Virus record (IMG/VR): IMGVR_UViG_3300020455_000008 | Span: 1-64,000 of that record | DNA: 64,000 nt | Origin: a virus | Strand: one strand, 5' to 3' | Shown here: piece after piece, positions 23,431 through 63,782 of the stretch | Position numbering within the stretch: the stretch's first letter is position 1 | How the letters are laid out: each line of letters starts with the position of its first letter | Notes under the pieces: model-generated | What the model was told of the DNA's origin: nothing | What the model saw: the letters and a program-made list of their open reading frames with translations, nothing else | The model's database searches: none | Translations under genes and position numbers: made by a program

Positions 23431-23718
23431 ATGTCTTTTACTGAAACACAAAAAATAGGAATTGTCGTTAATGATGATCCAACAAATCACCTACACCGTT
23501 TATATGCTATGCGGATAGAAGTCGGTGACAGATACAGTAAATATTTTATATTAGACCAAGTAAGAAGCGGCAAAAGAGCTACTCTCAGACGAGAGAGAGT
23601 ACTAACCGTTGACCTCCCAAGACAAGCAAGAGAAGCTGCAAGAAAGTGGCGTATTCTCAGACAAAATATCGAGGTGTTAAATGAGGACAGTGAATCCAAA
23701 ACCAAGAAATCTAAATGA
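23431..23718 (+). CDS. Hypothetical protein
   Basis: Tightly packed ORF in the replication operon. Confidence 0.55.
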   Translation: MSFTETQKIGIVVNDDPTNHLHRLYAMRIEVGDRYSKYFILDQVRSGKRATLRRERVLTVDLPRQAREAARKWRILRQNIEVLNEDSESKTKKSK

Positions 23719-24304
23719 GGAAACTCTACACCGAATGAACATAGGTAGACGGTACTGGTCTGCTGAAATGTCACAGGTAGAAGAATCTCCCGCTAAAACT
23801 ATATTCAGACGCTATGCACAAGACCTTACAACTAACTATGACCAAGGTTGGGGGATTTTCTTATATGGTTCTAACGGTATAGGGAAGACATATACAGCCT
23901 GTGCCTTTTTGAAAGAGATACAAAAGAGAGGTTACTCTACCTACTGTGTTCTAGCCGATGTTCTGAAGGTTGCGTACATCGATGGTCAACGATTCGACCA
24001 AGACAACTCTGTTGTCCAGCGTGTAGAGTCAGTCGATTTTCTTCTCCTAGAGGATCTTGGGAAGGAGTATTCAGGTAAGGGGAGTGGTTTTGCTGAGTTA
24101 TGTTTTGAGAATATGCTCAGAAAACGCTCTAGGGAGTGCTTACCTACAATTGTGACCACCAACCTATCTCCCAAAGCCTTTCAAGAGCGCTACAAGCAAT
24201 CTGCGGCTTCTTTGGCTATGGAATGTATGGTTGCTTGTCAAATGAAGGGCGCTGATCGTAGGAAGGTTGCGGGTAGCGTCAAGACTCAGGAGCTATCTGT
24301 ATGA
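23681..24304 (+). CDS. DnaC/IstB-like AAA+ helicase loader
   Basis: Walker A GSNGIGKT, Walker B LLLEDLG, PTIVTTNL, G.DRR. Confidence 0.9.
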   Translation: MRTVNPKPRNLNEETLHRMNIGRRYWSAEMSQVEESPAKTIFRRYAQDLTTNYDQGWGIFLYGSNGIGKTYTACAFLKEIQKRGYSTYCVLADVLKVAYIDGQRFDQDNSVVQRVESVDFLLLEDLGKEYSGKGSGFAELCFENMLRKRSRECLPTIVTTNLSPKAFQERYKQSAASLAMECMVACQMKGADRRKVAGSVKTQELSV

Positions 24305-37261: not shown

Positions 37262-37272
37262 AAAGTATCTAT

Positions 37273-37420
37273 AAAATCTATCGATAAAATTTAACTAAGA
37301 ATTTTACGGTAAAATCTATCGATAGATTTTTTCATTTTGGTAACTTTGTATAAAATCTATCGATGAATTTTATACAAGCCGCTTATAATATATATATATA
37401 TATAAGATAAACTATATAAG
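37273..37420. repeat. Three palindromic AAAATCTATCGAT boxes plus AT-rich tract
   Basis: Copies at 37273, 37311 (perfect 20-bp palindrome) and 37352, followed by a (TA)n run. Confidence 0.85.
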
Positions 37421-48107: not shown

Positions 48108-48449
48108 CTAGTCATCTTCATCTAAGTCCATATCAAAATCAACTTCATCTTGTAGCTCAATAATACCAACGTGCTCAAATTTATTGAGTTCTACCTCTTC
48201 GTAGATAATAACTTGCTTTAACTCTAACTCTTCTGCAATCTCTTCCATGACAGCTACACACCGATCTCTGTCATTAGAAATCATACACAGACCTTTTGCT
48301 ACGGGCTGGTAGAACAGATACAAATTAGCCCACATTGCTAACGGAACTATCAAAAACGCAGTGATCAGTGACGTGAATAAAATGCAGATGATCACATAAA
48401 TGACAAATAGAGCTTTTAGTAGATCGTCTTTATCAATATTAATCTCCAT
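48108..48449 (-). CDS. Hypothetical membrane protein
   Basis: Long N-terminal hydrophobic segment; RBS GGAGG. Confidence 0.6.
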   Translation of the reverse strand: MEINIDKDDLLKALFVIYVIICILFTSLITAFLIVPLAMWANLYLFYQPVAKGLCMISNDRDRCVAVMEEIAEELELKQVIIYEEVELNKFEHVGIIELQDEVDFDMDLDEDD

Positions 48450-49026
48450 CTATTACCTCCCGAATTGCTTTGAGAACTATAGGTTCAGCGTACGTAAACC
48501 ATTGGTCAAAATCATTTACTGCGGGTGCAATCTCTACTACCTTGACCCCCATTGCTTGCATACGCTCAAACCAGTCAATCAGTGCCTTAGACACTTCCAT
48601 CAATCCCTCTTCACCAATGATTTTACATACTGAATCTTCGGCTTCTAAGTTGTTTTGAGCTGCTGCTGGGATAGAATGGAAATAGACAATGAGATCGGGC
48701 AGCGGGTTAAGTTCCTCCATTCCAAGCGTCATGTCTTTGAACAAGTCAATCTCAGCCTGGGCAAGCTCATCTGTCTTAGCCAATGCTCTAGCGTAATCAT
48801 AACAAGCCCATACACTACGCTCATGTAGTGTAACTCCATTTGACTCTCTCCAGTTCTCCATATTCTGAGTAAGGGCGTAAGTCCAACTTTTGATTCCATT
48901 GAACGGTGGGGCGGCTACACCCACTTTTACAGTATCAAACTTAAAGTCACTCTCTGTAATAAACTTGTTAGTAAATTTTGGCATATTACTGCCCCATATC
49001 CCCTCAAACACAATACGCTTTGTCAT
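48439..49026 (-). CDS. Deoxynucleoside-kinase-like protein, degenerate P-loop
   Basis: RIVFEGIWGS, HERSVW, PDLIVYF; no Walker A Lys. Confidence 0.65.
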   Translation of the reverse strand: MTKRIVFEGIWGSNMPKFTNKFITESDFKFDTVKVGVAAPPFNGIKSWTYALTQNMENWRESNGVTLHERSVWACYDYARALAKTDELAQAEIDLFKDMTLGMEELNPLPDLIVYFHSIPAAAQNNLEAEDSVCKIIGEEGLMEVSKALIDWFERMQAMGVKVVEIAPAVNDFDQWFTYAEPIVLKAIREVIDGD

Positions 49027-50740: not shown

Positions 50741-50759
50741 AAGTTTTTGAAAACTATTT
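50739..50759. repeat. 21-bp direct repeat, left of the methyltransferase
   Basis: AAAAGTTTTTGAAAACTATTT, identical to 52190-52210. Confidence 0.85.
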
Positions 50760-52179
50760 ATAGTATACCTTTGAACAGTGGTAGGTCTTCTAAGTCTTTC
50801 TTCTTGACTTCGACTTCCTCAGCTTGACCACCCCAGTAAGCTATGCGCTTCTTAGCAATCTCAACGTACTCCTCGTTAAGCTCAATGCCAATCGCATTCA
50901 CTCCTTCTACAGCGCAAGCGCACAGGGTAGACCCACTGCCTAAAAATGGCTCTAAAACAGTGCCATCCTTTGGGCAGACTAAACGCAGGCAGTACTTCAT
51001 TAAATCAAGTGGCTTGACCGTTGGGTGGTGATTAGCCCTCTTACCCGATGGCGTTCTAGTTTTCTCTAACGACCCGTCTATACGACCATTTAATGTACCA
51101 AAGTTTTTCTTCTCTAAATCTTGTAGTCCAGCTTCTTTCTCTTTCTTACTTGCTTTCGATGTATAGAAGAACCTACTTGCCCCACCCTTATCTCCGTACC
51201 CTTCTGAACCATAAGCCTTCCAGCCTACACCATCCTCGACTGAGGAGAGCTGCCCCTTGCCAGCTACTCCCCAAGCCCGACTCTTCTTCCCAGCTCTACC
51301 ACTTTTCTGAATACCGCTTTGTTGATCGACCGCAAGTGCAGCTTCCTCATCTAGTATAACATTGGCAGGGAAACGACCTTTGGGTTTGTGCATTTGAATT
51401 TTACTACCGACTTTTGCTATGTGACCTGTCCACCCACTTTCCTTATAAGAAGCAGTTTTCTGTTCATGCATTTGGGTGAAGTCGATATTTTCACTGTTAT
51501 CATATTGCACTCTAGTATCATCGATATTGATTGCACCTACGCCCCACGTCATTACATTGTCTGCAATAGATCCTTCGGGTGGTTTTCTAATCATTATGAT
51601 GGGTTCATACGCTGGCTTGAGTGCAGTACCCCAACCCTCCCACTTCTCAGCTTCGGGGCATTTAGCTTGGTACTCTTCGACAGGATTTGACGTTAGTTTG
51701 TTTTTCTCTTCTACATCACTAGCTTGATACTGACTCGCAGTGGGGATTGCTCTACCCCTATTAGGGTGACCAAACTTCTTATCAATCGCTAATGATACGT
51801 TATGACTTTTTGGGAACCCACTGCCGTACAGGTACATCAAAGTATCCCTCACCTCGAACCCAGCTAAGCGCAAACTAATACTCATTAGGTCTTGGGTTCT
51901 TGAGGAAGCGAATACTAAACCATGCGCTCCAGGCTTTAGGACTCTGTATACTTCTTTCCACAAACTGGGAGGAGGCACCCAACTATCCCAAGACTTATTC
52001 ATAAACCCCTTACCCTTGGGTGTCCAAGACTCTCCACTTGTCCATGCTCTTAAGCAATCTTCTACATTCTTCGATGAGGTATTCCCCATACCGTAGGGCG
52101 GATCAGTGATTAAGCAGTCTAGTGAGTTGTCGTCTAATGTCTTAAGTATCTCTTCAGAGTCTCCATTTAGTATTTGCAT
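50758..52179 (-). CDS. DNA amino-methyltransferase (N6A/N4C, beta class)
   Basis: ITDPPY near the N-terminus, GSGFPKS, ALKPAYEPI, HPTVKP, EPFLGSGST; ATG at 52179. Confidence 0.92.
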   Translation of the reverse strand: MQILNGDSEEILKTLDDNSLDCLITDPPYGMGNTSSKNVEDCLRAWTSGESWTPKGKGFMNKSWDSWVPPPSLWKEVYRVLKPGAHGLVFASSRTQDLMSISLRLAGFEVRDTLMYLYGSGFPKSHNVSLAIDKKFGHPNRGRAIPTASQYQASDVEEKNKLTSNPVEEYQAKCPEAEKWEGWGTALKPAYEPIIMIRKPPEGSIADNVMTWGVGAINIDDTRVQYDNSENIDFTQMHEQKTASYKESGWTGHIAKVGSKIQMHKPKGRFPANVILDEEAALAVDQQSGIQKSGRAGKKSRAWGVAGKGQLSSVEDGVGWKAYGSEGYGDKGGASRFFYTSKASKKEKEAGLQDLEKKNFGTLNGRIDGSLEKTRTPSGKRANHHPTVKPLDLMKYCLRLVCPKDGTVLEPFLGSGSTLCACAVEGVNAIGIELNEEYVEIAKKRIAYWGGQAEEVEVKKKDLEDLPLFKGIL

Positions 52180-52189
52180 TGTCTCTCTC

Positions 52190-52210
52190 AAAAGTTTTTG
52201 AAAACTATTT
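52190..52210. repeat. 21-bp direct repeat, right of the methyltransferase
   Basis: AAAAGTTTTTGAAAACTATTT just upstream of the MTase start. Confidence 0.85.
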
Positions 52211-52801
52211 TTAGGTGGTGGCCCGCACAAATGAGTAGATCTGCTCTAGTAGTTTCTCAGACCAATACTCTCTCTCAAGGCCCATGATTTTAGGGGATTG
52301 AACTCTAAGTACCTGAACGCCCTTAGACTCCATTAACCCTAGCCACGTTTCATACAATTCGTCAAGAGCCACAAACTGAGTATTCGATAAGGGTGAGTGA
52401 CTAGCCGCACACTCAAAATACACAATGAGCGTTGGGAGCTGTATATCATCTGACATAAGATTGTCATAAAACATCTTCAATCGCTGGTAGTCCTCATCAC
52501 TCATACCAAGTCTCTCTCTATACTCCCACAGCGCAAAGGTCATCGCTGACCATACAGATCTCTCATAGAATGTAATCGGCACATGAGATCCCCACTGCTC
52601 ACCTAAATGCCACTGAGAAAAAAGCGCAAGCATATAGCTCTCCCACTTCTCTATATCCCAATCTCCATCTAATACACTCTCCTCCTCTCCCCATATCAAA
52701 CGACTCACACCTAAGTTCTCCAGCTCCCACATAAATGCTCCCACTCCACTACCCACTATACCCTCAATCGAAATCCTAGAAAAAGCGCGCAAAGAATACA
52801 T
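52211..52801 (-). CDS. Deoxynucleoside-kinase-like protein, degenerate P-loop
   Basis: RISIEGIVGSGV, YERSVWS, PTLIVYF, L.ELYETW; no Walker A Lys. Confidence 0.65.
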   Translation of the reverse strand: MYSLRAFSRISIEGIVGSGVGAFMWELENLGVSRLIWGEEESVLDGDWDIEKWESYMLALFSQWHLGEQWGSHVPITFYERSVWSAMTFALWEYRERLGMSDEDYQRLKMFYDNLMSDDIQLPTLIVYFECAASHSPLSNTQFVALDELYETWLGLMESKGVQVLRVQSPKIMGLEREYWSEKLLEQIYSFVRATT

Positions 52802-53094
52802 ATGACCCCCTAATAACTAATTATCTATACCCCAGTATACCATAAGACTAAATATCCCTTACCCTCATACATAAACACACTCATCACATACACTAAACAA
52901 TAATAACAACACTCTCACTCATACAATCATCATACACTCCTCAAATATACAACAATCCCCAACAAAACATACCCCAAACCCCCTACTATACATCATCCCA
53001 TAGAAAAACCAATCTCCCCATCGTAATATACATAACACCACCACTTGAGTGTTAGCGCCCTTCGCAAACCTTTGGAATCATTAAGTTTTTCGGA

Positions 53095-53200
53095 GTTGAC
53101 AAAAGTGTCAACCGATGAGGTGATTTTGGTGAGTTGGAGAGCTTTAGAAAAGTGAAAATCCTAACATTCAGTAACTCTCGAATATCGAATGTTAGGATTT
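53095..53200. repeat. Two inverted repeats
   Basis: GTTGACA-N4-TGTCAAC (53095-53112) and AAATCCTAACATTC-N17-GAATGTTAGGATTT (53156-53200). Confidence 0.75.
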
Positions 53201-53410
53201 CAAAAGTATTTTATGGCTCATCACCCAGCAAAACAGGTGCGAAATTGCCCCTAAACAGCAAAATGCTACTTATAAGTACCCATAAAACCATGATTCACCT
53301 AAAATAGGTGTATTTAAAAAACAGTGACTCTCACGACATCGAGTCTCCACTTTTACGGGGGGTAAATACAAGAAAAAATAGGGGGTTGTAGGTGTTTGTC
53401 CTACGTTACC

Positions 53411-53647
53411 CTAAGCAGTGATCTTCCAGTGCGCTTCGCCTTCCTCATCGTAGCTGCGAGTGATTGAGTAATACTGCTCATCCTCATAGTACTCGACAAT
53501 AAAAGTCTCAGTGTGTTTGCGCTCTATGACTCTAACGAGTCTCCAATTAGGAAATGGATCAGACAGGTATGCTGCTAGAAAGCTTTCTAGCGCCTGTGTC
53601 TCTTCATAGTCTATCGTATACCGAGTGGTCACTAGTGTATCTCCCAT
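53411..53647 (-). CDS. Hypothetical protein
   Basis: Last gene of a coupled minus-strand operon. Confidence 0.55.
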   Translation of the reverse strand: MGDTLVTTRYTIDYEETQALESFLAAYLSDPFPNWRLVRVIERKHTETFIVEYYEDEQYYSITRSYDEEGEAHWKITA

Positions 53648-54216
53648 GACTTTGGGATGAGAGGGTACAATCTCTCTACGGCTTCAGGGAATGTCATACC
53701 CCAGCTCCACTGAGAGGGTGCGATCTCAACGGCCCATCCATCTGAGTACCCTTGACTTACAGGCTCATCTATATCCATGCCATCGATGAGATCTTGAAGC
53801 TCATCTTCTGTAGTGTACCTTATGTGCTGAGTAGGTAGACATTCATCCTCTCCGACTACCAGTATCTCTTCGAATGTGATGATGGGGGTAAAGGGGAAGC
53901 CGCTTGCATAGAACTGAGATCTAATTGCTTGGTATACTGCATGAGCGATAGCGGTTTCTCTATCATGCCCGATTCCAACGTAGTGAGCGCCATCAGGGGT
54001 ATGGGTATATACGCCAAACCCTCTCATAGCTTCTATGAACTCTAGGCCACACTCATCCATCTCCTCTTGGGAGAGGGGGCGGTCATATATAAATATGTAA
54101 TGAGGGGGGAGGGCGTTGTCTTCGACAACGTGATATGTCCAAAGCTTCTCTAGCTCATCGCTGACCGCCATATTATCGATTAGCTTTAGGAACTGAGGGT
54201 GTATATTAAAGGTCAT
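53632..54216 (-). CDS. Hypothetical protein
   Basis: 194 aa; TAATG-coupled to the upstream gene. Confidence 0.65.
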   Translation of the reverse strand: MTFNIHPQFLKLIDNMAVSDELEKLWTYHVVEDNALPPHYIFIYDRPLSQEEMDECGLEFIEAMRGFGVYTHTPDGAHYVGIGHDRETAIAHAVYQAIRSQFYASGFPFTPIITFEEILVVGEDECLPTQHIRYTTEDELQDLIDGMDIDEPVSQGYSDGWAVEIAPSQWSWGMTFPEAVERLYPLIPKSWEIH

Positions 54217-54485
54217 TACTTATTCTCCAGGTATGAGGGCTTCGGCATGAAGAGCCAAAAGGGAAAGGGTTGTGGTATCTCAAGTTTAGTCCAAGTGGAA
54301 TGGGCTTCAGTAGGGGTCATTTGTTCTACAAGTGCGAGGAGGTGTCTCCACAACTGGTGAGCGACAAGGTATGCGAGGTATGACTCCTCATTATCCTCTA
54401 CATCTGAGTAGCAAGTATTGAGTTGCGCCCATAGGTTGTCATTAGTGAGGTCTTCTACAAGTTCGTTTATTGTCATGTTATCCAT
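54216..54485 (-). CDS. Hypothetical protein
   Basis: Coupled operon member. Confidence 0.6.
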   Translation of the reverse strand: MDNMTINELVEDLTNDNLWAQLNTCYSDVEDNEESYLAYLVAHQLWRHLLALVEQMTPTEAHSTWTKLEIPQPFPFWLFMPKPSYLENK

Positions 54486-54486
54486 T

Positions 54487-54963
54487 TTAGAATCTCCAGT
54501 TAGGATATTTGATAGGGTGAGTTGGGTTTAGTTCTGTGATGAGCTTCATCATGCGCTCAGTGGTGTCTATTGAGTCAATGCCGCAGATGAAGCACTCGAT
54601 CATCTCTCTGCGTACACTCTCCTTCCATCCCTTCTGTAGAAGGATCTCTGACCAAGTGGCTCTTATGCCCTGCTCTGTTAGAGCGTATAATGTTTGTGCC
54701 ACTCTCTTGAAAGTAATTGCTCTACCGAACTCTCCACTCTCTGAGTAGAGTTTGTTGAGCGCCCAAAAGTGTCCAGCGACTGAGTGCTGGGATTCTAGTG
54801 TCCACTGACCGAACACTGAGGTGTTAGCCTGAACAGATCCACACTCAACTCTGTTACCAAGGAGGAGCGTAGTTCTGAAAGCTTCTCCCCATGTTATGTT
54901 GGGGTATGCTTTGCGGAGCTGGTGAGCGAAGCGATTGGTGTTAGCTGTAATGTGCTTTCTCAT
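54487..54963 (-). CDS. Hypothetical protein
   Basis: First gene after a minus-strand promoter; leader GAAAGAGA. Confidence 0.65.
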   Translation of the reverse strand: MRKHITANTNRFAHQLRKAYPNITWGEAFRTTLLLGNRVECGSVQANTSVFGQWTLESQHSVAGHFWALNKLYSESGEFGRAITFKRVAQTLYALTEQGIRATWSEILLQKGWKESVRREMIECFICGIDSIDTTERMMKLITELNPTHPIKYPNWRF

Positions 54964-55001
54964 TTTCTTGTCTCTTTCTGTGAGCCTTAACTACTTCTAT
55001 A

Positions 55002-55037
55002 CAATAACCTACCTATTAATAGTTTTCAATAACTATT
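55002..55037 (-). promoter_or_regulatory. Minus-strand promoter with overlapping operator-like palindrome
   Basis: On the minus strand AATAGTTATTGAAAACTATT contains TTGAAA-N17-TATTGT; same core as 44826. Confidence 0.55.
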
Positions 55038-55039
55038 TT

Positions 55040-56460
55040 CACATTCTGCAAAAAAAATACCACACCCCTTCGATGGTCGATGGGCGGGTAGTTGGGTAAG
55101 GTCAACCACTGGGTAGTGATGAGCCAACACTAAAAAAAGACCACCCCAGGGTAGAGGAGGTCATTACATATAAGACAGATGTTCAGTACTCAGATGAGCG
55201 CAGAGTAGTTTACCCATTTTCAAAATACCACCCATCCTTCCACCTACCTTTGGTAGAACAACCTCGATGAGGGGGTGAGGTTGCGTTATACGCTCATTTC
55301 TCTACCCCCGTTAATAGCCCTTGGATCTGTGGTCGGCTTAGACGAGCGCACAGGGCTAAATACGAACCCCACCAAAATCCACACTAGGGGTAAGGGTCAC
55401 TCATCGGTATACACAAGAGGGTACTGGGTAAGCGCCAAGTGGTGAGCAGCCATCACCCAAAAAATCCCATAGGGAAGGCCACCCCCTCCTCACCCTTCTA
55501 GGGATATGGATGAGAGGGGCTAAGGCCCAAAGGGCTAGAGAGGTGATTAGACGTTTCAAAGGCTTCCATATCTACTACTAACATAACTAGTTAAGCTCTC
55601 ATAGATGAGAGCGGGTTAATAATATATAACAGATGAGTCACCTCTCCACCCCCATAGAAACACAACCCTCTATGGGGCGCAACAGGAAACATACATACGT
55701 ATGATGAGTATACAGGGGGGAGGGTGTGATGAGCGCCGCCAAGGGTAAGGGCTAAAGGCAACCACTCACCTCAGCCCATAGGAGGTGTATACCGTATATA
55801 CACTAAAGGCAATAAGGCGCATAAAGGTGATGAGTGGATAACTCATCTACATACCAGTATCCCTCTATACACAGAGTGGATGAGCGCCCCGAAAAATTTT
55901 ACTAAGGGATTTAGCAATAAACGGTACTAAGGGATAAACTCTAAGAATTCATAAGGGATGAGTCTATTTATCATAAGTCGTCAAGCCCCGAAAAATTTTG
56001 GAAGAGCTTTTTGCAATAAACAATTACGTGCGCGCGCCCGCGCCCGCCCGCGCCCGCCCAGGCGCGCGTAGCAGCAGCCTTGGATGCCGTCATAGCGGGC
56101 TTTTTTGACGACACACCAGCAGCCCTAAAATAGCTTCGATGTCGTGAGAGTCGACGTTTGCGCACCAGTACTGAAAGGTCGTTCAGTACTGAACAAAATA
56201 CCATGTAAGACAAGAGACTACAAAGGGCCTGTATTACCTACTGAACAAGTAATCATGTAGTCTAGTCTCTCACCTTGTGACTATATAATTGATCTAAAAA
56301 GGGCCTGATCAAATTACTGTGTACTTGTTCAGTGTATCCACTTGTTCACACTACTGAACAAAGAAACAGTAAAATATGGCATTTACTTCTGGAATTTCGT
56401 TATGTACCTTATGTTTATCAAGTTCACTGTGAGCTTGTCTAATACATTCATCCTTAAGGG
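55040..56460. other. ~1.4-kb motif-dense non-coding region between divergent gene blocks (candidate origin/terminus/packaging region)
   Basis: No credible ORF; 13 GATGAG/CTCATC, 2x GCCCCGAAAAATTTT, GC-rich tract at 56027-56068, TGAACA cluster. Confidence 0.6.
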
Positions 56461-56468
56461 GATAACAC

Positions 56469-56588
56469 ATGATAAAAGATCTTAAATACTCTCTCTCTCA
56501 CTTTGGACTAGTTCCCACACTAGTTTTTGTCTCGCTTTATGCGCTTGTTCTCTTTTCATGGGCCTATGGCCTTTACACTAGCCTTTAA
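56469..56588 (+). CDS. Small membrane peptide (39 aa, absent from the ORF track)
   Basis: G-rich RBS; MIKDLKYSLSHFGLVPTLVFVSLYALVLFSWAYGLYTSL; stop overlaps the next RBS. Confidence 0.5.
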   Translation: MIKDLKYSLSHFGLVPTLVFVSLYALVLFSWAYGLYTSL

Positions 56589-56598
56589 GGAGGCGATT

Positions 56599-56889
56599 AT
56601 GATAACAAGTAAAGGAAAACAACGGTTAAAGCGTCACAATGAAAAGAGCGCTTTTAAGCGCTCTACGTGGGTATCGTCTTCTCACTCTGTCAACTTAGAG
56701 CGAGGTAAAAAGTATCTAGTTAAAGCAGGGTATAAACTAGGAACTGCTAACGATGGGTATTTCACTGATCAAGTAAAATTCGATGATGGCGAGACTATCA
56801 TTTTATATACGTCTGTAGACGCATATAAAGCCTTATTTAAAGCAAATATTGTCGCTTGGGAATTACAAGGCTACAATTATGATTATTGA
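56599..56889 (+). CDS. Hypothetical protein
   Basis: RBS AAGGAGG before ATG 56599. Confidence 0.65.
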   Translation: MITSKGKQRLKRHNEKSAFKRSTWVSSSHSVNLERGKKYLVKAGYKLGTANDGYFTDQVKFDDGETIILYTSVDAYKALFKANIVAWELQGYNYDY

Positions 56890-57604
56890 ACAATTGCGTG
56901 TCTTCGGAAACCTTGCGTTATTTGCACAAGCAAACAGGTTTAATAATAATCTTTCTAATCAGAAGATGAAAGCCGATCAATACAGCCTTGAAGGAGATTT
57001 CATTCAATATACTATTCTACCTCTTGAGCTTGTTAAATTAGGACAAATGAAGGGAAAAGGAATTACTCAATATGCACAAGATATAGCCTGCGCTTTAAGT
57101 TGTGAATTTACAGTCAGAAATGGGGGTGGCTGCTATGTCAACAATGAAATAAGAACAGCAATCAAAAGTGCGCATAAGGTACTTAATAGTCGTTCACTCA
57201 GTTTTAAAGCGTATAATCCTAAAATTCGCTTGACTGTTTGGGGTGATGTTGGGCGCTTAAACGCAGAGGGTAAAGCCTACATTTTAAACCTTGCTCAAAA
57301 TGCTGATAGACTAAGTTATACAGCTGATTTTCAAAAAGAAAGCATGCAAAAATTCAAGGGCTTTTTCTTGGCGAGTGTGCAGTCAATACCTCGGCTCTTA
57401 ACCGCTCAGTCGTTAGGATGGAAATCCTACATTGCAGATAGTGCGACTTATGAATTTGTAAAGGTTCAAGGAATTGAAAATTTATATAAATGTCCTCAAA
57501 ACAACAAGGGAGACGCGGTGAGATTCGGTTGTTCAACTTGTAAAATCGCGTGTAATGGCTTGCGATCTGTTGTCGCTTATAGCGTACACAGTCAAGCGTT
57601 ATGA
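56879..57604 (+). CDS. Gp88-like Cys-rich (radical-SAM-related) phage protein
   Basis: N.KM, C...C......GCY, IRL..WGD, SYT, LASV, A..LGW, CP...C..C..AC. Confidence 0.6.
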   Translation: MIIEQLRVFGNLALFAQANRFNNNLSNQKMKADQYSLEGDFIQYTILPLELVKLGQMKGKGITQYAQDIACALSCEFTVRNGGGCYVNNEIRTAIKSAHKVLNSRSLSFKAYNPKIRLTVWGDVGRLNAEGKAYILNLAQNADRLSYTADFQKESMQKFKGFFLASVQSIPRLLTAQSLGWKSYIADSATYEFVKVQGIENLYKCPQNNKGDAVRFGCSTCKIACNGLRSVVAYSVHSQAL

Positions 57605-57741
57605 GTACGCTTGAGATCGTCTTTACAATCGGTTTACTAATCACAGACTATAGACTCTTTTTATTATACCTAATACTTAGGTAAACACTTAAAAACACTA
57701 CACAAGGGCCTCGGCTGGAGGCTCCCCTTTAAGGAGGTAAC

Positions 57742-58104
57742 ATGAACACACTTTCGAGTAAAGCAATGAAGCGAGATCAAGACGAACTAAAACGAACTTT
57801 CGGAGGTGCTTTGAAGGGCCTTTATGAACTTGATTTTGATATGTATACTCAAGATGTGGAATTGTTGATTTGGCTATTTGAGCAAGAGAACGCAGAGGAA
57901 TTATATATTATCGAGTGTTTAACAAGCTTTGATATGTATGATGAGTATATAGCCGAATTACCCGAGGGCTATGAGGGAACAACCTCATACCCTAGATTGT
58001 CTATTCTTTGTTATTTGGGGAGGGTAATGACTAACGATCTAAGAAGAATGTTACTAAACGAACACTTTGCAGATATTAACAAGCGTAAAGCTATAAACAA
58101 CTAA
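57742..58104 (+). CDS. Hypothetical protein
   Basis: RBS AAGGAGGT. Confidence 0.65.
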   Translation: MNTLSSKAMKRDQDELKRTFGGALKGLYELDFDMYTQDVELLIWLFEQENAEELYIIECLTSFDMYDEYIAELPEGYEGTTSYPRLSILCYLGRVMTNDLRRMLLNEHFADINKRKAINN

Positions 58105-58140
58105 ACAACTAAACAACTAAACAAGGGCCCAAGGGCCCAA
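58094..58140. repeat. Short tandem repeats
   Basis: TAAACAAC nearly four times, then GGGCCCAA twice. Confidence 0.7.
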
Positions 58141-58153
58141 GAAAGAATTCATT

Positions 58154-58504
58154 ATGTTTATCTCAGCAAAACAACTTCAAAACATCATCGAAACAAACAA
58201 GCAGCAAGCGCAGCATATACAATATTTGACTACTCAAGTAGAAGCGCTTCAACACACAGTTAAAGAGCTAACAGAAGTTAGAAAGCTTCTTACTGATGAC
58301 GAGGTTGAGGCATTAACTGAACAACTCGTAAATAATGATGAATTTCAATACTCTTTGAGTGAATGGATTAATATATATCTCGGTGATAATATTGATGATT
58401 ATGTCAGTAGTTACATTGATAATCATCACTACATAATCACTGATCTAGTAGACGATAAAATAAACGAGATCTTTGAGGAGGTAACTATCAAAATAGAGAG
58501 ATAA
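58154..58504 (+). CDS. Hypothetical acidic coiled-coil protein
   Basis: 116-aa ORF ending before a terminator. Confidence 0.6.
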   Translation: MFISAKQLQNIIETNKQQAQHIQYLTTQVEALQHTVKELTEVRKLLTDDEVEALTEQLVNNDEFQYSLSEWINIYLGDNIDDYVSSYIDNHHYIITDLVDDKINEIFEEVTIKIER

Positions 58505-58533
58505 CAAGCAAAACAAAGAAACGACCTTTCAGG

Positions 58534-58569
58534 CCCTTGCTAGTCTCCACACTAGCAAGGGTTTTTTTT
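58534..58569 (+). terminator. Rho-independent terminator
   Basis: CCCTTGCTAGT-ctccac-ACTAGCAAGGG followed by T8. Confidence 0.9.
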
Positions 58570-58841
58570 GTCTTTTTGAATACCAACCCCCACCAACCCA
58601 CAAAAACCGTATTTTGCGTTTTAAGCCACGTTAAAACACTGGTCTATATCAATACAGTGGTTAGGTGGCTATCTTTCGTCTTACGTTAAAATATGAGCTA
58701 ATTTAACTATGTTCATTCTTTGGTTTGAGTCGGGCCTGTATGCTGCTAGCGATTAGAGAGAAGTTGACCCGTCAAACCAACTGAACAACTGTTCAGTTGC
58801 CCCAAGACACCCATCCCCCATACCTGCGCAAGCAACTTTTA

Positions 58842-58972
58842 CACTAATGTAAATTGAGTTGGGTTATGTCCACTATGCACTAATGTAAACTGAGATGAGT
58901 TATGTCCAACCATTATGCACTAATGTAAATTGAGAGGGTTTATGTCCAACCATTATGCACTAGGGTAAATTG
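58842..58972. repeat. 36-40-bp tandem repeat, about 3.4 copies
   Basis: CACTAATGTAAA.TGAG..G.TTATGTCCA(ACCA)TTATG units at 58842, 58878, 58918, 58958. Confidence 0.88.
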
Positions 58973-59056
58973 TGTTTGTATGATTGGGTATTGTGGGTTT
59001 GTGTGTATATATGTTTTATTAGTTGTGAGAATAGACAAGAGAGAGAGAGATAAGAT

Positions 59057-59932
59057 ATGATGACATTAAGAAGGGGAGACAAGGGTAGTTTTGTATTGTT
59101 TCTGCAAGAGCGATTGAATTTTCATGGTTTTTACACGAGTCAGGGTGGAGAGTTTAATGTGGGAACGGAGCGTACGTTAAAGGAGTTCCAGGTGTTATGG
59201 AATTTGGAGGTGAATGGTATATGTGGGGATGTGGAGTGGGGTTGTTTGTTGCAGAATTTTGGTTGGAGTCGTGGTGGTCATTTTGAGCGTAAGCGATTAC
59301 CTGAGTTATTATTGGAGCGAGTGGAGAAGGAGGGGGATGTGAGTGTGGAGTGTATGGGTGTATTGGGGGAGATGTTAGGATATTTGGGATGTGAGGAGCG
59401 TCCATTTGGTCGTAATCGTGGTAAGGAGGTATTGGAGTTGGTGCAGGGAACGTGTGTAACGGGTGAGCGTAGGTTATTGGGTAGTGAGTACAAGCGTCAT
59501 TGTGGTTTTAGTAATCTGAAGTATTTCCCATTATGGAGTGTGATTGGATTGAGTACGATCTTTGCGAAGTATTTTGAGGCGGATGATTGGAGTGAAGCGC
59601 CATTTGGTGATTGGTTGGGAACAGTAGACCAGTTATTGATATGGGGGGAGGGGCATGGTGTGTTGCGTGTTGGAGATTTGGGGTATTTGCGTCCAGGGGA
59701 GATCTTTGTGATAGGGATGGTGGATGTGGATTATAGTGTGCGTGGTTATGATGGGGGTGCACGTCCGAGGGGTGGTCATTGTGGTTTAGTGTTATGGGAT
59801 TGTGGAGATGGTACAGTGCAGACGGTGGAGTGTAATACAGCGAATGGTGTACGAGTGAGGAGGAGAAAGAAGTCTCAGTTGTATGGTGTGATCAATTGGG
59901 AGGGTGCATTGGAGGGGTTGGGATATGAGTGA
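59057..59932 (+). CDS. PG-binding plus CHAP-like amidase with altered catalytic motif
   Basis: LRRGDKGSFV..LQERL...TLKEFQ...L.VNGICG..EW; LGCEERP.GRNRG; GHCGLV; TVECNT. Confidence 0.72.
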   Translation: MMTLRRGDKGSFVLFLQERLNFHGFYTSQGGEFNVGTERTLKEFQVLWNLEVNGICGDVEWGCLLQNFGWSRGGHFERKRLPELLLERVEKEGDVSVECMGVLGEMLGYLGCEERPFGRNRGKEVLELVQGTCVTGERRLLGSEYKRHCGFSNLKYFPLWSVIGLSTIFAKYFEADDWSEAPFGDWLGTVDQLLIWGEGHGVLRVGDLGYLRPGEIFVIGMVDVDYSVRGYDGGARPRGGHCGLVLWDCGDGTVQTVECNTANGVRVRRRKKSQLYGVINWEGALEGLGYE

Positions 59933-60290
59933 TTATATATATGATCGTGAGTTATGTAGGGAGCGAGCGATTTGTTTGAAGTTGGGTGGTTTAACGATAC
60001 GGGAGGTGATGTCCGTTTTAGCGGATGAGGGTTATATGAATAGAGATACGGGTCGTGGTTATGGTTATGAGAGGGTGAGAGTATGGTGCAAGGGTATCTG
60101 TGACCAGCGTGGTTACCGTCATGTGCATTTACGTGGTATGAGTATAGAGGAGCGTAAGTTACATGATGAGCGTCAGCATGAGATCCGATTGCAGCGTGTA
60201 CGTGATTGGCGTGAGCGCAATATGGATCGAGTAAGGGAGTATGACCGCTGGTACTATGAGAATTTTAGGCGTGTGTTTCGCAATTCTTAG
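59925..60290 (+). CDS. Putative DNA-binding protein (recombinase-type HTH plus basic tail)
   Basis: GLTIREV..VLADEGY...TGR.Y...RV. Confidence 0.5.
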   Translation: MSDYIYDRELCRERAICLKLGGLTIREVMSVLADEGYMNRDTGRGYGYERVRVWCKGICDQRGYRHVHLRGMSIEERKLHDERQHEIRLQRVRDWRERNMDRVREYDRWYYENFRRVFRNS

Positions 60291-60324
60291 TACTTATTGA
60301 AAAGTATGAATAGGGGTGTGTGTA

Positions 60325-60675
60325 TTAGTTATATTTGAGTTCTTTAAATACGGCCAGTTGGAAGAGAACGTCAGCGACTTCTGCGTCTTCATCATTGTGG
60401 ATGATGAGTTGCAGGTATGTGGGGTATTCTTTAGCCATGATATGTAGTGCTTGGTGTAGATCCTGTAGTGTGATGATATGTATTTTGTTGTCTTCTATTT
60501 CGTGAATGATGAGTGACCAGTCTTTATTGAGTTCGAGTAGGTTTTGTTCTTTTGGTATTTTGGTAGTGGCCCAGTATGAGATACCAGCTTCGATGGCAGT
60601 TTCTAGGACTTCAGCGATTCTGTAGTTGGGTATGGTGTATTGTATATGAACGGTGCATGATGTGTGTGTTGTCAT
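60325..60675 (-). CDS. Conserved phage protein (EAGISYWA family)
   Basis: LETAIEAGISYWA...DAEVADVLFQLAVF.E..Y. Confidence 0.7.
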   Translation of the reverse strand: MTTHTSCTVHIQYTIPNYRIAEVLETAIEAGISYWATTKIPKEQNLLELNKDWSLIIHEIEDNKIHIITLQDLHQALHIMAKEYPTYLQLIIHNDEDAEVADVLFQLAVFKELKYN

Positions 60676-60974
60676 TAGTGTATGCCTTTAAGTATTTGGA
60701 TATAGTCTTGTTGTGTTTGTGTGTGTATTTGTTTGATTTGTTTGAGTACGGACTGTTTTTTATTGAGATGTAGGGTAGTGGGTAGTTTATGTTTAACTCT
60801 TTGGGCGCGCCATCGGTAGATATTGCTATCTAGGACGAAGAGGGCGAGTTGGTGTAGGTATGTTCGGTTGCTAGCGTGTGTATACTCTTGTGAGAAGGTG
60901 TGCCATAGATCTCGATCTTCGTGTGTCGTGTATTGTAAGAGTTCTTGGTAGTATTGTGTTTGTGTGTGTGTCAT
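60675..60974 (-). CDS. Hypothetical protein (T/H/Q-rich)
   Basis: TAATG-coupled; composition follows the local strand skew. Confidence 0.5.
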   Translation of the reverse strand: MTHTQTQYYQELLQYTTHEDRDLWHTFSQEYTHASNRTYLHQLALFVLDSNIYRWRAQRVKHKLPTTLHLNKKQSVLKQIKQIHTQTQQDYIQILKGIH

Positions 60975-60999
60975 GTTGTATATCCGTTAATAATGTCTT

Positions 61000-61353
61000 T
61001 TAGAGATACTGTAAGAGTTTAGCTCCGATTTCATGTGGGATGAGATCACAGGGCATAACGGTCATTGTTTCTTTGTGTGAGTGTGCTAGGTCATCGAGCC
61101 AACAGTTGTCTTCGATATACAGGGCACGATCGACAAAGAGGTGAACATCTACGCTGGTAAAGGATGTGGGGTAGAAGAAGAAGCTAATCTCTGTTCTTTC
61201 GTCATCTTTGTATGCAGTGATTCTGAGAGCTGGATCACTTGAGTCTCCTTGGATCTCAGTATTGATTTTTCCTGTGTAGTGTTGATTGAGGTATTCTACA
61301 ACTTCTTGTAGGAAGAGGTATTGCCCACTTTTCATATGATCTAGTAAGTTCAT
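61000..61353 (-). CDS. Hypothetical protein
   Basis: ATGA-coupled to the upstream gene. Confidence 0.6.
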   Translation of the reverse strand: MNLLDHMKSGQYLFLQEVVEYLNQHYTGKINTEIQGDSSDPALRITAYKDDERTEISFFFYPTSFTSVDVHLFVDRALYIEDNCWLDDLAHSHKETMTVMPCDLIPHEIGAKLLQYL

Positions 61354-61673
61354 TGTGCTTCATCCTTATTTGGGAAGTCGAAGCAGAGTGTAGACTTCGT
61401 GGGTGTATGTGTCATGGTGGTTGCCCCGTAGGGGTGGTTAGCGAGTCCAGAGATAGTTATGCCAGCCACAGTGGAGTTATATTTTGAGTTCCTTCTGCAT
61501 TTGATTTCGATGGTAGTATCGTTGACTTCAGATATTTTGACTTTCATTGCATTGGCGAGTGGTGTGATTGCTTCGACTAGGTGACCTTTAACGATAGTGG
61601 GATAGATCTCGTTAGGTGTTAAGCCTTGATCGATTAACTCATGTGCAGTGTGTAATAGGTGAGCGTATGACAT
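61350..61673 (-). CDS. Hypothetical protein
   Basis: RBS AAGGAG and upstream promoter. Confidence 0.6.
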   Translation of the reverse strand: MSYAHLLHTAHELIDQGLTPNEIYPTIVKGHLVEAITPLANAMKVKISEVNDTTIEIKCRRNSKYNSTVAGITISGLANHPYGATTMTHTPTKSTLCFDFPNKDEAQ

Positions 61674-61723
61674 TGTGTTCTCCTTAGAGAGTGTTTAGTA
61701 AAAAAGCACTAAGCTTGATACAA

Positions 61724-61752
61724 GATATACCCCACTATTTAAGGTAGGTCAA
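61724..61752 (-). promoter_or_regulatory. Sigma70-like promoter
   Basis: TTGACC-N17-TATATC on the minus strand. Confidence 0.5.
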
Positions 61753-61782
61753 TAGGGAAAAATAAAAATATTTTATATTGGC

Positions 61783-62274
61783 TTAATCCTGTTCCATTTC
61801 TTCAAAGCATTTCTCTTGGTTGAAGTATAAAATATCTGTGTATATATCGATGATATGTTGTGCATAGTTGTACTCTGATCGACCTTGTTTGCATTTCCCT
61901 TTAAGCCCTCTGTTGTACTGGGCAAGTGCTTTGCATTTCTTTTGGTTATTAAGGTCTAGGAATTTCTTGAGTGCCGTTATCCCTGCTTTAGTATAGTTGC
62001 ACTCACCTTCTTTTGGGCAGTGGTATTGAGGTAGAACACCTAATGGGCCTTTTGCGCCTTTATGGCTTGTGATATTCTCGAATCGAGTCTCATCATATGC
62101 GACTGAGATGGCGAGTATGGGGTCTACCTTTTGTTTGATGGCTTCCTTAGCAACTTCTTGGCAGATTGCCATTCGTTTTGGGATAGTCTTAGAGATTTTC
62201 TTTTGGTAGCTGATCGAAGCATTAGGTGACATGATATTCATCATAATGATCCAGCATAGGTTTGTTACGTTCAT
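61783..62274 (-). CDS. Lytic transglycosylase (SLT)-like protein
   Basis: VDPILAISVAYDETRF...SHKGAKGPLGV.P...ALAQYN.G. Confidence 0.75.
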   Translation of the reverse strand: MNVTNLCWIIMMNIMSPNASISYQKKISKTIPKRMAICQEVAKEAIKQKVDPILAISVAYDETRFENITSHKGAKGPLGVLPQYHCPKEGECNYTKAGITALKKFLDLNNQKKCKALAQYNRGLKGKCKQGRSEYNYAQHIIDIYTDILYFNQEKCFEEMEQD

Positions 62275-62663
62275 TGTGCTTCCTTTATTGTGACCTCAGT
62301 CCTTGGTTGGTTACTACGCTCTGCATAGTATTTGTATGCGTGAATGGTGCATACCTGAGCGTCATCTTTGAGTGTTTTATTAAGTGCGTCTAGTACGGCC
62401 TTGATGATATTGTCAAGGTCGGGTCTTTTAGTATGTTTGATGAGTCCATCGGGGTATTTCTTAGGCATAAGTCTTTGTGGTCTTGGGAAGACAGCAAGTA
62501 ATGTGACTTCTATAGGGCCTTGTATGTCTTGTTCTTTAATGAGTGCCTTGAGTGCGTTTTCGTAGTCCTTTGTTCTTTTGGGTGTGTATGCTCTACCGTT
62601 ACCGAATCTTGGTCTGCCTTTGGGTACAGGGGTGCCCATTAAGGTGATGGTAATAGGGTTCAT
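62271..62663 (-). CDS. rusA: RusA-family Holliday junction resolvase
   Basis: PVPKGRPR...YTPKRT; RPDLDNIIKAVLDAL...DDAQV...K.Y. Confidence 0.92.
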   Translation of the reverse strand: MNPITITLMGTPVPKGRPRFGNGRAYTPKRTKDYENALKALIKEQDIQGPIEVTLLAVFPRPQRLMPKKYPDGLIKHTKRPDLDNIIKAVLDALNKTLKDDAQVCTIHAYKYYAERSNQPRTEVTIKEAQ

Positions 62664-62881
62664 TCATTTTCCCACTTACGTACACCCCAGTATTGTCCAC
62701 CATTGGCTCTATCATCATCTAGGTAAACGATGGAATATCCGTTAGTGTTGAGGTAGGCGGTTGCAGCGTGGAAACAGTCAAAGTGTGCAAGTTGGTCTTT
62801 GTTTTCAGTATCGGGGTTATAAAGGGTAACCCATGTATATGGTCGGTCGGGTCTTGTGTCTTCAATAACTATTTCTTTCAT
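62660..62881 (-). CDS. Hypothetical protein
   Basis: ATGA-coupled chain of genes. Confidence 0.55.
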   Translation of the reverse strand: MKEIVIEDTRPDRPYTWVTLYNPDTENKDQLAHFDCFHAATAYLNTNGYSIVYLDDDRANGGQYWGVRKWENE

Positions 62882-63066
62882 AGTTTGACTCGCTTTCTGA
62901 CCATGTATAACTTTTGCTGTGGACCACCTTTTTTGATCATAATTTGTTTATTTGTTTTGGAGAACTGGGTGCCGTAGCCACGTTCGAGCCAAAGTTGGAT
63001 TTCTTTTTTAGCTTCCATGTAGTTGGGGGTAATCAAAATGATCTCCCAAGGGTTTGACTTTTTCAT
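62878..63066 (-). CDS. Hypothetical protein
   Basis: RBS AAGGA; coupled to the downstream gene. Confidence 0.5.
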   Translation of the reverse strand: MKKSNPWEIILITPNYMEAKKEIQLWLERGYGTQFSKTNKQIMIKKGGPQQKLYMVRKRVKL

Positions 63067-63202
63067 TTTTTTCCTTTCTGTGTGCGTACACTTATGGAAA
63101 TGTCTATAGCACTCATGTTGAATCTCTTCAAGATTTATTTCAACATACCAACGTGTGGGTTATAATATGTTAGATACTCACTAATACTTTTGGAGGTACG
63201 TA

Positions 63203-63463
63203 ATGAACGTCAATATGGACATGGTTTTTAAGGTGATGAGCGTAGGTTTGATTCCAGCTATGTTATGGGTCAACTCGCAGTCTGTAGATATTGCTTTGTT
63301 GAAGCGAGAGCTTGAGTCGAACAAGACTCGATTAGACAAGGTAGAAGCGCAACAATCTAAGATTTTACAGGGAGTCACAGATAATCAAATTGCTCTTAAA
63401 AGCATGACAGTGACTATGAACTTTATGAAAGATATTTTAACGGATATTAAAAATGCTAGGTAA
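63203..63463 (+). CDS. Small TM plus coiled-coil protein
   Basis: RBS GGAGGT; upstream TATAAT. Confidence 0.6.
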   Translation: MNVNMDMVFKVMSVGLIPAMLWVNSQSVDIALLKRELESNKTRLDKVEAQQSKILQGVTDNQIALKSMTVTMNFMKDILTDIKNAR

Positions 63464-63782
63464 CTTTTGGCGAGGTGTGGCATTGGTTGTTTTTTGGGTA
63501 TTATGTGCTTTTGTGTATCAGTCTTTGTTACATACAGACGATTACCAAAAGTCAGCCGCTAGTACAATGGATACCGCCCCTATGAAATCTGCTAAACGTG
63601 TTGTAAGGCGTAAGCGTAAGTTAAAGCGTAAACGTAAAACTAAGAAGCCGTATTTACTTGAAGTTAGAGTAAGGGACGCTAACCCTGTTGACATTCATCA
63701 AATGGAACAACAGTTAAATCAGATGAGTATAGATGTGATTGACCTAAAGGTTAGTCAGGGGATTCCCAATGGATATAAATGA
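63453..63782 (+). CDS. Membrane-anchored basic protein
   Basis: N-terminal TM and K/R-rich stretch. Confidence 0.55.
   Translation: MLGNFWRGVALVVFWVLCAFVYQSLLHTDDYQKSAASTMDTAPMKSAKRVVRRKRKLKRKRKTKKPYLLEVRVRDANPVDIHQMEQQLNQMSIDVIDLKVSQGIPNGYK

Follow-up and report, generated by a model that had tools for sequence, protein, structure and literature searches.

Which process keeps one strand of a phage genome almost free of cytosine for kilobases, beginning at a single base and taking no account of the direction of the genes? The question is raised by IMG/VR virus record IMGVR_UViG_3300020455_000008, an 84,945-bp phage record whose overlapping ends indicate a circular assembly and whose first 64 kb (64,000 nucleotides) form the window analysed here. 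A right arm of extreme GC skew, G/T-rich and C-poor on the plus strand, runs rightward from position 58961, and a left arm of opposite sign, almost free of plus-strand G, ends at 53045, with an island that is mostly unskewed between them. The right arm begins at a sequence element (58.78-58.97 kb) that is conserved among relatives, and we tentatively attribute it to recurrent displacement of the plus strand as single-stranded DNA from that element.

The right arm and its anchor element

The step at the start of the right arm is abrupt. On the plus strand the C at 58960 is the last before the tract; 58961-59035 contains none, the next stands at 59036, and 58961-59056 holds a single C. The three longest C-free runs (80, 75 and 62 nucleotides) all lie within 58961-59398, compared with a longest run of 50.4 nucleotides on average and 71 at most in 100 shuffles. 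Across the whole genome |GC skew| exceeded 0.35 in 6 of 169 non-overlapping 500-nucleotide windows: 52501-53000 in the left arm (-0.67), the four windows spanning 59001-61000 (+0.69, +0.65, +0.45 and +0.46) and 64001-64500 (+0.37). Between 59.1 and 60.0 kb the skew is 0.65-0.70 and G makes up 37-44% of the bases. Extreme-skew tracts in the 84.9-kb genome are only the left and the right arm. The sequence-only reading that first described these tracts had counted no G in 52847-53002, two G up to 53046 and no C in 58961-59035, and these counts were exact on recount; the sharp inner edges it reported are likewise real, with the last C at 58960 followed by one at 59036 and G resuming at 53047.

The genes of the right arm, and the region that follows them, are as follows.

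59057..59932, plus strand: endolysin-like gene with an N-terminal PG_binding_1 domain.
59925..60290, plus strand: Arg-rich open reading frame (ORF), the first gene after the anchor in relative L021, which is without the lysin.
60325..63066, minus strand: cluster of eight genes, including phrog_2355 (60325-60675) and a RusA-like resolvase (62271-62663).
63067..63202, no strand assigned: divergent promoter region with a conserved TATAAT, serving the plus-strand late operon.

Read on the plus strand, the four-fold degenerate sites of the two plus-strand genes (G.34, C.03, A.24, T.40; n = 155) and of the eight minus-strand genes at 60325-63066 (G.32, C.04, A.25, T.39; n = 332) have the same composition, and the sense strand of the lysin has no C at any of 114 such sites. 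Bulk plus-strand genes show G.14, C.13, A.30 and T.43 (n = 7353), without replication skew at these neutral sites. Third codon positions carry an equal plus-strand bias in either gene orientation, and the same plus-strand four-fold pattern is found in relatives G001, L011, L019 and L021. Because the plus strand stays G-rich and C-poor, the mRNAs of the minus-strand cluster are C-rich and G-poor at synonymous sites (G.00-.09, C.17-.45 at four-fold sites), as they also are in G001, L008, L011, L019 and L021. The shared composition in both orientations means that the bias sits on the DNA strand, in agreement with the original claim that it is independent of the coding strand. Two independent codon habits would not be exact complements. 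It is more economical to suppose one force that works on a single DNA strand or on the RNA copied from it. Relative to a strand-symmetrised baseline the plus-strand shift amounts to -.12 for A, -.10 for C, +.19 for G and +.03 for T.

The genes carrying this composition are real and under purifying selection. Between the window and L008, which are 94% identical, the plus-strand genes differ at 11.8% of third positions and at 2.4% of first and second positions, and the corresponding values in the minus-strand genes are 11.1% vs 2.5% and 8.3% vs 1.2%. As an observation on the lysin itself, a second cell-wall hydrolase with Amidase_2 and PG_binding_1 domains is encoded at 21115-22044 in the genome bulk, and the main endolysin may therefore be another protein than the skewed PG_binding_1 product of 59057.

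The bias declines with distance from its start. The decay was profiled at third codon positions only, in 750-nucleotide bins counted from the start and in five lineages: the four bins upstream had skews between -0.24 and +0.31, the first bin downstream had 0.69-0.84, and the fit was 0.80·exp(-d/4043 bp)+0.07, with a standard error of 1058 bp on the length. Both arms fade outward, as first described, although the right arm extends at neutral sites over ~5-7 kb, including the whole minus-strand cluster, and not over 2 kb. Its strongest part ends at ~63067-63202 and a weaker tail reaches ~65-66 kb, into the late operon.

The start coincides with a composite element, made up of four parts in the window.

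58778..58800, no strand assigned: operator-like palindrome whose two 10-nucleotide arms are CAACTGAACA and its complement; the conserved blocks of the anchor begin with it.
58801..58841, plus strand: C-rich block CCCCAAG … CCCC … GCAAnCAAC, abutting the first TTTACACT box upstream.
58842..58972, plus strand: 3.4 tandem units of ~40 nucleotides (TTTACACT/ATGCACT … GTTATGTCC).
58961..59056, plus strand: almost C-free leader (1 C in 96 nucleotides, 68% A+T), G/T-rich and followed by a purine-rich ribosome-binding stretch.

No other tandem repeat in the window scores as high as this array (185). Its last unit lacks the C-containing half, and the C-free tract begins inside that unit, at 58961. In an ungapped comparison in the window and L009, the last unit differs from its siblings by A>G 9, A>T 9, C>G 4, T>G 4, T>A 4, C>T 3, G>T 3, C>A 1 and G>C 1; as 38-55% of positions differ, the homology is too uncertain for these counts to be used. 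A strong terminator at 58531-58564 precedes the element. A scan for sigma-70 promoters returned 25 sites against 27.4 expected, none of them convincing within the element. A second iteron-like array, 4.6 copies of the 13-nucleotide unit TATCGATAAAATC, occupies 37266-37324 in an intergenic gap of the replication module and is an alternative candidate for an iteron-type origin.

Relatives were recovered as DNA, either the loci of homologues or their neighbours, from viral and metagenome collections; protein search returned seven homologues of the lysin with 47-97% identity. Nine loci cover the boundary (the window, L001/G001, L008, L009, L011, L012, L013, L015 and L021), among which G001 is an 81-kb relative syntenic across the whole genome. 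L016 and L017 were left out, as their match is limited to the PG-binding domain at 36-40% identity, L018 (78% identical) was too distant to serve as a close-pair baseline outside the domain, and L022-L024 were used solely as out-of-context controls for RusA. Motif and skew step coincide in 9/9 of these loci. The order of parts in the relatives is a TGTTCA half-site or palindrome, CCCCAAG…GCAAnCAAC, TTTACACT, ~20 nucleotides and GTTATGTCC; a TGTTCA or GTTCA half-site stands at the equivalent position upstream of the motif in L008, L011, L012, L013, L001 and L015, and the C-rich block is conserved, by eye and without formal alignment, in the window, L008, L009, L011, L012, L013, L001 and L015. 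A single unit is present in 4/9 lineages (L001, L011, L012, L013), while 5/9 have two to five at ~40-nucleotide spacing, namely two in L021, three in L008 and L015 and five in L009. The element occurs once in each of the two complete genomes, and equivalents of the leader are found in all relatives. Upstream of the element the relatives differ in their genes, all of which are unskewed; homology between L008 and the window begins at 58787, and the sequence just upstream of the element is mosaic among relatives. L021 is especially informative: the ORF directly after the element is equally skewed there despite the missing lysin, and skew that starts at the motif without the lysin is tied to position and not to a gene lineage.

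The left arm, the island and the genome around them

The left arm and the island consist of the following parts.

52211..52801, minus strand: dNK2, a deoxynucleoside-kinase-like gene (PF01712), paralogue of 48439-49026.
52802..53045, minus strand: non-coding left arm, the leader of dNK2, with 5 plus-strand G in 244 nucleotides and a minus strand nearly free of C.
53046..58960, no strand assigned: unskewed island between the two arms.
53411-54963, minus strand: minus-strand genes of the island.
54964-56526: non-coding field of 1.5 kb with degenerate repeats, GATGAG motifs, C-run/G-run hairpins and TACTGAACAA half-sites.
56527-58504, plus strand: variable plus-strand genes, ending in the strong terminator 58531-58564.

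In the left arm, 52847-53002 is a G-free run of 156 nucleotides, the longest of the genome (52847-53046 has 2 G); the runner-up of 64 nucleotides also lies in the left arm, and the longest G-free run in 100 shuffles had a mean of 39.6 and a maximum of 57 nucleotides. The inner edge falls at 53046/53047, with G resuming at 53047. Over all sites of the left arm the minus strand has G.35, C.07, T.36 and A.22. The third-position plus-strand skew of dNK2 is -0.8 at 52517-52754 and -0.35 at 52177-52514; the two deoxynucleoside kinase paralogues, 48439-49026 and 52211-52801, lie 3 kb apart, and skew is present only in the 5' half of dNK2. In G001, the only relative covering the left side, the left arm is absent and the dNK2 homologue is unbiased. 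The right-hand motif has no copy at the left edge or elsewhere in the genome, and homology between the two arms amounts to nothing beyond short low-complexity matches. As the left arm is shorter, fades within a gene and is absent from G001, a mirror arrangement about 56 kb, which the sequence-only reading had proposed, is unsupported; the right arm moreover has its own anchor at 58.8-58.97 kb.

The island is not neutral throughout. Three minus-strand genes at 53632-54963 are G-poor and C-rich at four-fold sites, with a plus-strand skew of +0.62 to +0.69, and show the same bias in G001 and L021, whereas the adjoining gene at 53411-53647 is unbiased. Half-sites of the type TGTTCA/CTGAACA, related to the palindrome of the anchor, occur at 56187-56368. 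A tandem array with units of roughly 50-70 nucleotides is found at the homologous field in L009, L011 and L012, whose contigs end there, as does the G001 record. In G001 and L021 the homologue of 56849-57604 has the reverse orientation, and the right half of the island has no homology in L008, L009 and L011; this half has therefore been both rearranged and exchanged among relatives. A tract made of G and C only (GCGCCCGCCC x3) occupies 56027-56068, and it is dispensable, given a 92%-identical relative in run X7 that is without 126 nucleotides including the tract. Left of dNK2, a gene for a 490-amino-acid DNA methyltransferase with a DPPY motif (50758-52230) is polymorphic for presence and absence: a contig of runs X1/X2 joins 50763 to 52191, omitting 1427 nucleotides with the methyltransferase gene, and G001 has no homologue. 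In the right arm, a palindrome at 60291-60314 is the sole sequence between the convergent genes ending at 60290 and 60325 and is related to 55012-55035 and 52190-52216.

The genome encodes a myovirus gene set (tail sheath, baseplate, tape measure, portal, major head protein and large terminase) together with a family-A DNA polymerase, a DnaB-like helicase, a primase and a UvsX-like recombinase for replication. A protein with HTH_36 and DnaD_N domains encoded at 22572-23429 is initiator-like, and an IstB/DnaC-like loader is encoded at 23681-24304; no phage RNA polymerase was found among the scanned proteins. Genes are almost all on the plus strand, with the accessory region at 48.1-63.1 kb as the exception. 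Megablast of 52000-61500 against 50,697 phage records gave zero matches and the closest relative of the DNA polymerase is just 36.5% identical, so that this phage collection contains no cultured relative. The runs in which the sequence occurs are marine metagenomes (24 runs listed). No tRNA genes were present in the window, and an Rfam search of 52000-63500 at permissive thresholds gave 0 matches. Further off, the C-terminal part of the protein encoded at 37429-38811 resembles a queuine tRNA-ribosyltransferase (phrog_887), a type of protein that phages employ to place 7-deazaguanines in DNA. The adjacent gene at 38780-41788 encodes a 1002-amino-acid ribonucleotide reductase in which the match to the reductase falls into two separate stretches, with weak matches to terminase- and helicase-like families between them, and this suggests an inserted element such as an intein.

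Possible causes of the strand bias

The explanation that we favour, with a probability of roughly 0.4, is that the plus strand is recurrently displaced as single-stranded DNA, in an R-loop or D-loop, from a fixed start, and that this is the primary cause of the bias. The element at 58.78-58.97 kb probably marks that start. The bias jumps from ~0 to ~0.8 within a few bases, ignores orientation and recurs at the same element; a unique conserved start, a single direction, exponential decay and indifference to genes point to processive machinery which sets out from the element and exposes the plus strand. In such a scheme a polymerase would start at the element and run rightward with a constant chance of stopping, and each passage would leave a displaced single-stranded plus strand, either as an R-loop behind RNA polymerase or as a D-loop at a unidirectional leading-strand start. 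The exposed strand would lose the amino bases C and A and gain T and G, while purifying selection would remove damaging changes, so that genes stay functional and protein compositions drift to G/V/W/C/L/R-rich or, on the other strand, T/H/Q-rich. Increasing G may further stabilise RNA:DNA hybrids, and the process could reinforce itself. The left arm (53045 to ~52200, minus strand G/T-rich) would then be a second, shorter and younger instance running in the opposite direction from the dNK2 promoter region, and the fading of this second arm in mid-gene, in opposite orientation, fits a distance-dependent process.

Both RNA polymerase and a replisome are conceivable as the machine. The palindrome, with a terminator before it, has the look of a regulated promoter; tandem units, an A+T-rich leader and genes for an initiator and a loader speak for an origin. 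The tandem units with their 68% A+T stretch resemble origins built from iterons or from a promoter plus an unwinding element, and a DnaD/HTH-type initiator, a DnaC-like loader, a DnaB helicase and a primase are all encoded in the genome.

Three compositional tests bear on models in which selection, and not displacement, removes C. Of the remaining C, 26% follow a T (31% expected) and 12% follow another C (9% expected), and a pyrimidine followed by C (YC) is not specially avoided. Arginine in the lysin is encoded by 16 CGN and 7 AGR codons, with at least 57% CGN in 8/8 homologues (bulk, 379 vs 443), even though leucine (2 CTN vs 32 TTR) and serine (1 TCN vs 10 AGY) are nearly C-free. The observed-to-expected ratio of GG is 0.82-0.93 in three lineages vs 1.03 in the bulk, that is, G is not clustered. 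As each of these tests goes against one specific selection model, we favour displacement.

Several observations weigh against this explanation. Deamination predicts mainly transitions. At third positions of the two plus-strand genes, however, window and L008 differ by 17 transitions and 32 transversions (G/T 13, A/T 12), and the ratio of transitions to transversions is 25:24 and then 24:12 further out. T is barely raised (+.03), G rises (+.19) beyond the fall in A (-.12) and plus-strand purines reach.57 and not.50, an imbalance that requires some flux from pyrimidines to G, or selection for G. Of the local mutational process put forward by the sequence-only reading, a strand-specific force at the level of DNA and not of proteins is supported; C deamination alone is not, since the gain in G is of the order of the loss in C and T hardly rises. 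Recent changes, where polarised, erode the skew, with 14 gains and 6 losses of C and 33 losses and 19 gains of G; the spectra comprise 70 changes with 36 unpolarisable in the plus-strand genes and 11 changes with 106 ambiguous in the minus-strand cluster. Erosion matches a bias maintained by selection, yet an outgroup that is 22-26% divergent biases parsimony the same way, and the point is not decisive. A version with RNA polymerase requires dominant antisense transcription over eight functional minus-strand genes that have their own promoter, and the motif is poor as a sigma-70 promoter. A version with replication is without independent support, given the other iteron-like array at 37266-37324 and a bulk without replication skew. 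Finally, the minus-strand genes at 53632-54963 have a plus-strand four-fold skew of +0.65 for which no start element was identified.

The alternative that survives best, although we regard it as rather unlikely, is selection on a long plus-sense transcript from the element, whose C-poor and G-rich RNA would evade Rho or a C-dependent RNase. The pressure would fall chiefly on untranslated RNA, that is, the 96-nucleotide leader and a 2.9-kb antisense stretch toward the late operon at 63203, with the 244-nucleotide leader of dNK2 as a second case. According to the available portion of PMC13323073, naked nascent RNA is recognised by Rho at CC/UC dinucleotides, and the composition of genes bears the mark of Rho avoidance. 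The sharp onset beside an operator-like palindrome follows the terminator at 58531-58564, which suggests that a new transcription unit begins at the element. The leaders are the most fully C-free parts, the convergent genes that meet at 60290/60325 have no intrinsic terminator between them, the strongest part of the domain stops where plus-strand translation resumes, and recent changes erode the skew with frequent G/T/A transversions, as though C alone were barred. YC, on the other hand, is depleted no more than C itself, and arginine CGN codons have not been recoded to AGR although leucine and serine are C-free. The bias also peaks in the translated lysin, where ribosomes should shield the RNA, eight functional minus-strand genes are forced into C-rich, G-poor mRNAs that would be ideal Rho substrates, and U is high (T.39-.40), unlike the purine loading seen with Rho avoidance.

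A wider conjecture, doubtful to much the same degree, is that unrelated tailed phages bear start-anchored three-letter domains of this kind, in which selection would keep the first-exposed strand, be it displaced DNA or an RNA copy, free of cytosine and so counter host factors that require C, such as Rho, C-specific nucleases, or deaminases of single-stranded DNA cytosine combined with uracil excision.

Selection could instead act on the DNA itself, a reading to which we give little credence. The plus strand exposed at an origin or on entry would be kept C-free and G-rich either for function, as a stable R-loop primer or for easy unwinding, or with C as a liability before host C-specific deaminases, glycosylases and nucleases. 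This shares the geometric evidence with displacement, and the domain is kept in lineages whose lysins are just ~50% identical, recent substitutions head toward erosion of the skew, and R-loop replication intermediates are employed at T4 origins and in ColE1 (available portion of PMC12599619). G is unclustered, however (GG 0.82-0.93), unlike in R-loop initiation zones or G-quadruplexes, arginine CGN codons persist, no defence or counter-defence gene was identified adjoining the domain, and a decay length of 4 kb is long for a primer R-loop.

Very unlikely, in our judgement, is a single bidirectional origin in the middle of the island (~56 kb), or an island that is a collapsed long terminal repeat edged by the arms. 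The arms have opposite signs with the polarity of leading strands diverging from between them, and the centre of the island is a 1.5-kb non-coding repeat field. Island contigs have 1.5-2x the k-mer depth of their flanks in three runs (18.1 vs 11-12, ~6-7 vs ~3 and 9.1 vs 3-6 at 51021-58123), but these depths are not copy numbers and a mixture of strains fits equally; a variant without the methylase gene co-occurs within the same run. Yet the arms begin 3 kb off the centre and enclose unskewed DNA, the left half of the island has genes of the wrong sign (+0.62 to +0.69), the left arm is missing in G001, the right arm sits on its own element in 9/9 loci, and the bulk has no replication skew at neutral sites. 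The assemblies of L021 and the window also cross the island unbroken, and relatives' contigs break at tandem repeats in mid-island without a shared terminal sequence. Of the polarity that the sequence-only reading ascribed to a bidirectional origin, the excess of G over C together with T over A stands; the single origin at ~56 kb does not, in view of the opposite sign in the left half of the island and the unskewed bulk. Two related ideas were rejected. The right domain as a collapsed terminal repeat finds no support in the depth of the 10.3-kb unitig (11.8 vs 11.1 in the left flank), itself weak evidence. Physical genome ends in mid-island were considered, since the contigs of six relatives terminate between 2.7 and 4.4 kb upstream of the lysin; those of L009, L011 and L012 stop inside tandem repeats with no common terminus, which makes this an assembly effect.

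Trivial causes are barely credible: the sequence immediately upstream of the element is indeed mosaic among relatives, but X1/X2 unitigs (possibly from the source sample) span both edges, independent contigs of L008, L009, L011, L012, L013, L015, L021 and G001 span the homologous right edge, the skew is kept in all relatives down from 97% to ~47% lysin identity, and the bias is maximal at four-fold sites. A third, independent sample contains matching pieces. RusA homologues in three unrelated phage contigs are unbiased (four-fold G.19/C.08 and G.37/C.40), in contrast to G.00-.03/C.27-.35 in this phage group. Neither protein composition nor foreign DNA nor misassembly is the source of the bias; both escapes that the sequence-only reading had left itself are closed, amino-acid composition conserved in orthologues by the unbiased RusA genes elsewhere, and chimera junctions at the edges by the unitigs that cross both of them and the relatives' contigs that cross the right one.

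Significance and comparison with known systems

Strand asymmetry is normally weak and genome-wide. Here it is local, with a skew of up to 0.7-1.0, a start sharp to a single base, an exponential wake and a conserved anchor, and it is strong enough to reshape the amino-acid composition of functional proteins. If the cause is mutational, the domain would record, in a form readable from sequence, at which place and over what distance a strand of an uncultured phage is kept open. It would offer a route to origins or dominant promoters in metagenomic phage genomes, and an example of protein evolution steered by a local mutational field. A selective cause would point to an unrecognised pressure on exposed phage nucleic acid; should start-anchored three-letter domains prove general, their onset would pinpoint, by sequence alone, the first engagement of a polymerase on the phage genome. 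With anchor, polarity and decay length defined in about ten lineages, the question is testable.

Among the closest parallels is mitochondrial DNA. An excess of G over C combined with T over A is the classical mark of the exposed strand in replication skew and in mitochondrial DNA. As in vertebrate mitochondrial DNA, where the heavy strand is G/T-rich and replication proceeds by strand displacement, one strand is G/T-rich at neutral sites in either gene orientation, the bias is graded from a fixed start and protein composition shifts with it. The phage domain differs in being local (~4 kb decay in 85 kb) and far sharper in onset, and in that substitutions between close relatives are not dominated by transitions; the shift fits the mitochondrial signature for C, A and G while T hardly rises, and the polarised counts are small and biased. 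Exposed-strand polarity and mitochondrial strand asymmetry are treated in the available portions of PMC3269012 and PMC4182315.

R-loop zones with GC skew, at CpG-island promoters and immunoglobulin switch regions, have a positive skew of the non-template strand from a start site, to which the skewed plus strand of the phage may correspond, as far as the available portion of PMC3787257 goes. In R-loop origins such as T4 oriF/oriG and ColE1 (PMC12599619, available portion) the displaced strand is exposed, and G reaches ~37-40% over >1 kb in the phage. Unlike in such zones, G in the phage is unclustered and the domain runs antisense through eight genes. We know of no report of kilobase-scale skew of this size for T4 or ColE1.

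The GC skew of bacterial and huge-phage origins likewise combines G over C and T over A on the outgoing strand, and its sign is reversed between the two arms. In contrast, bulk four-fold skew in this phage is ~0 and the asymmetry is not genome-wide; its arms lie 5.9 kb apart with edges of their own and no single point of sign switch, one of them is lineage-specific, and the magnitude is several-fold above the usual. The bias from Rho avoidance resembles the phage domain in depletion of C from nascent RNA past the promoter and in its effect on synonymous codons, but as described in the available portion of PMC13323073 it is purine-rich, confined to the sense strand and genome-wide, whereas the phage domain is G/U-rich, local, graded and antisense to eight genes. 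The phage also lacks specific avoidance of YC.

Phage origins of the iteron or tandem-promoter type place tandem direct repeats by an A+T-rich stretch, as the window does with its 3.4 units and 68% A+T leader, and initiator, helicase loader and DnaB helicase are encoded here. The primary origin of T7 reportedly consists of two promoters plus an A+T-rich stretch, and that of lambda is said to be of the iteron type. Unlike iteron origins, the element has a single unit in 4/9 lineages of this phage group, and to our knowledge no origin has been reported with a kilobase-scale C-free wake on one strand. The literature searched, taken without supplementary files, contained no kilobase-scale, motif-anchored phage domain depleted of C on one strand; one match to 'extreme GC skew' (PMC5649160) concerned contig filtering. 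As at least one defining feature fails for each family that could be compared, we regard the domain as a member of none of them and see in it a form of strand asymmetry that is new, local and extreme.

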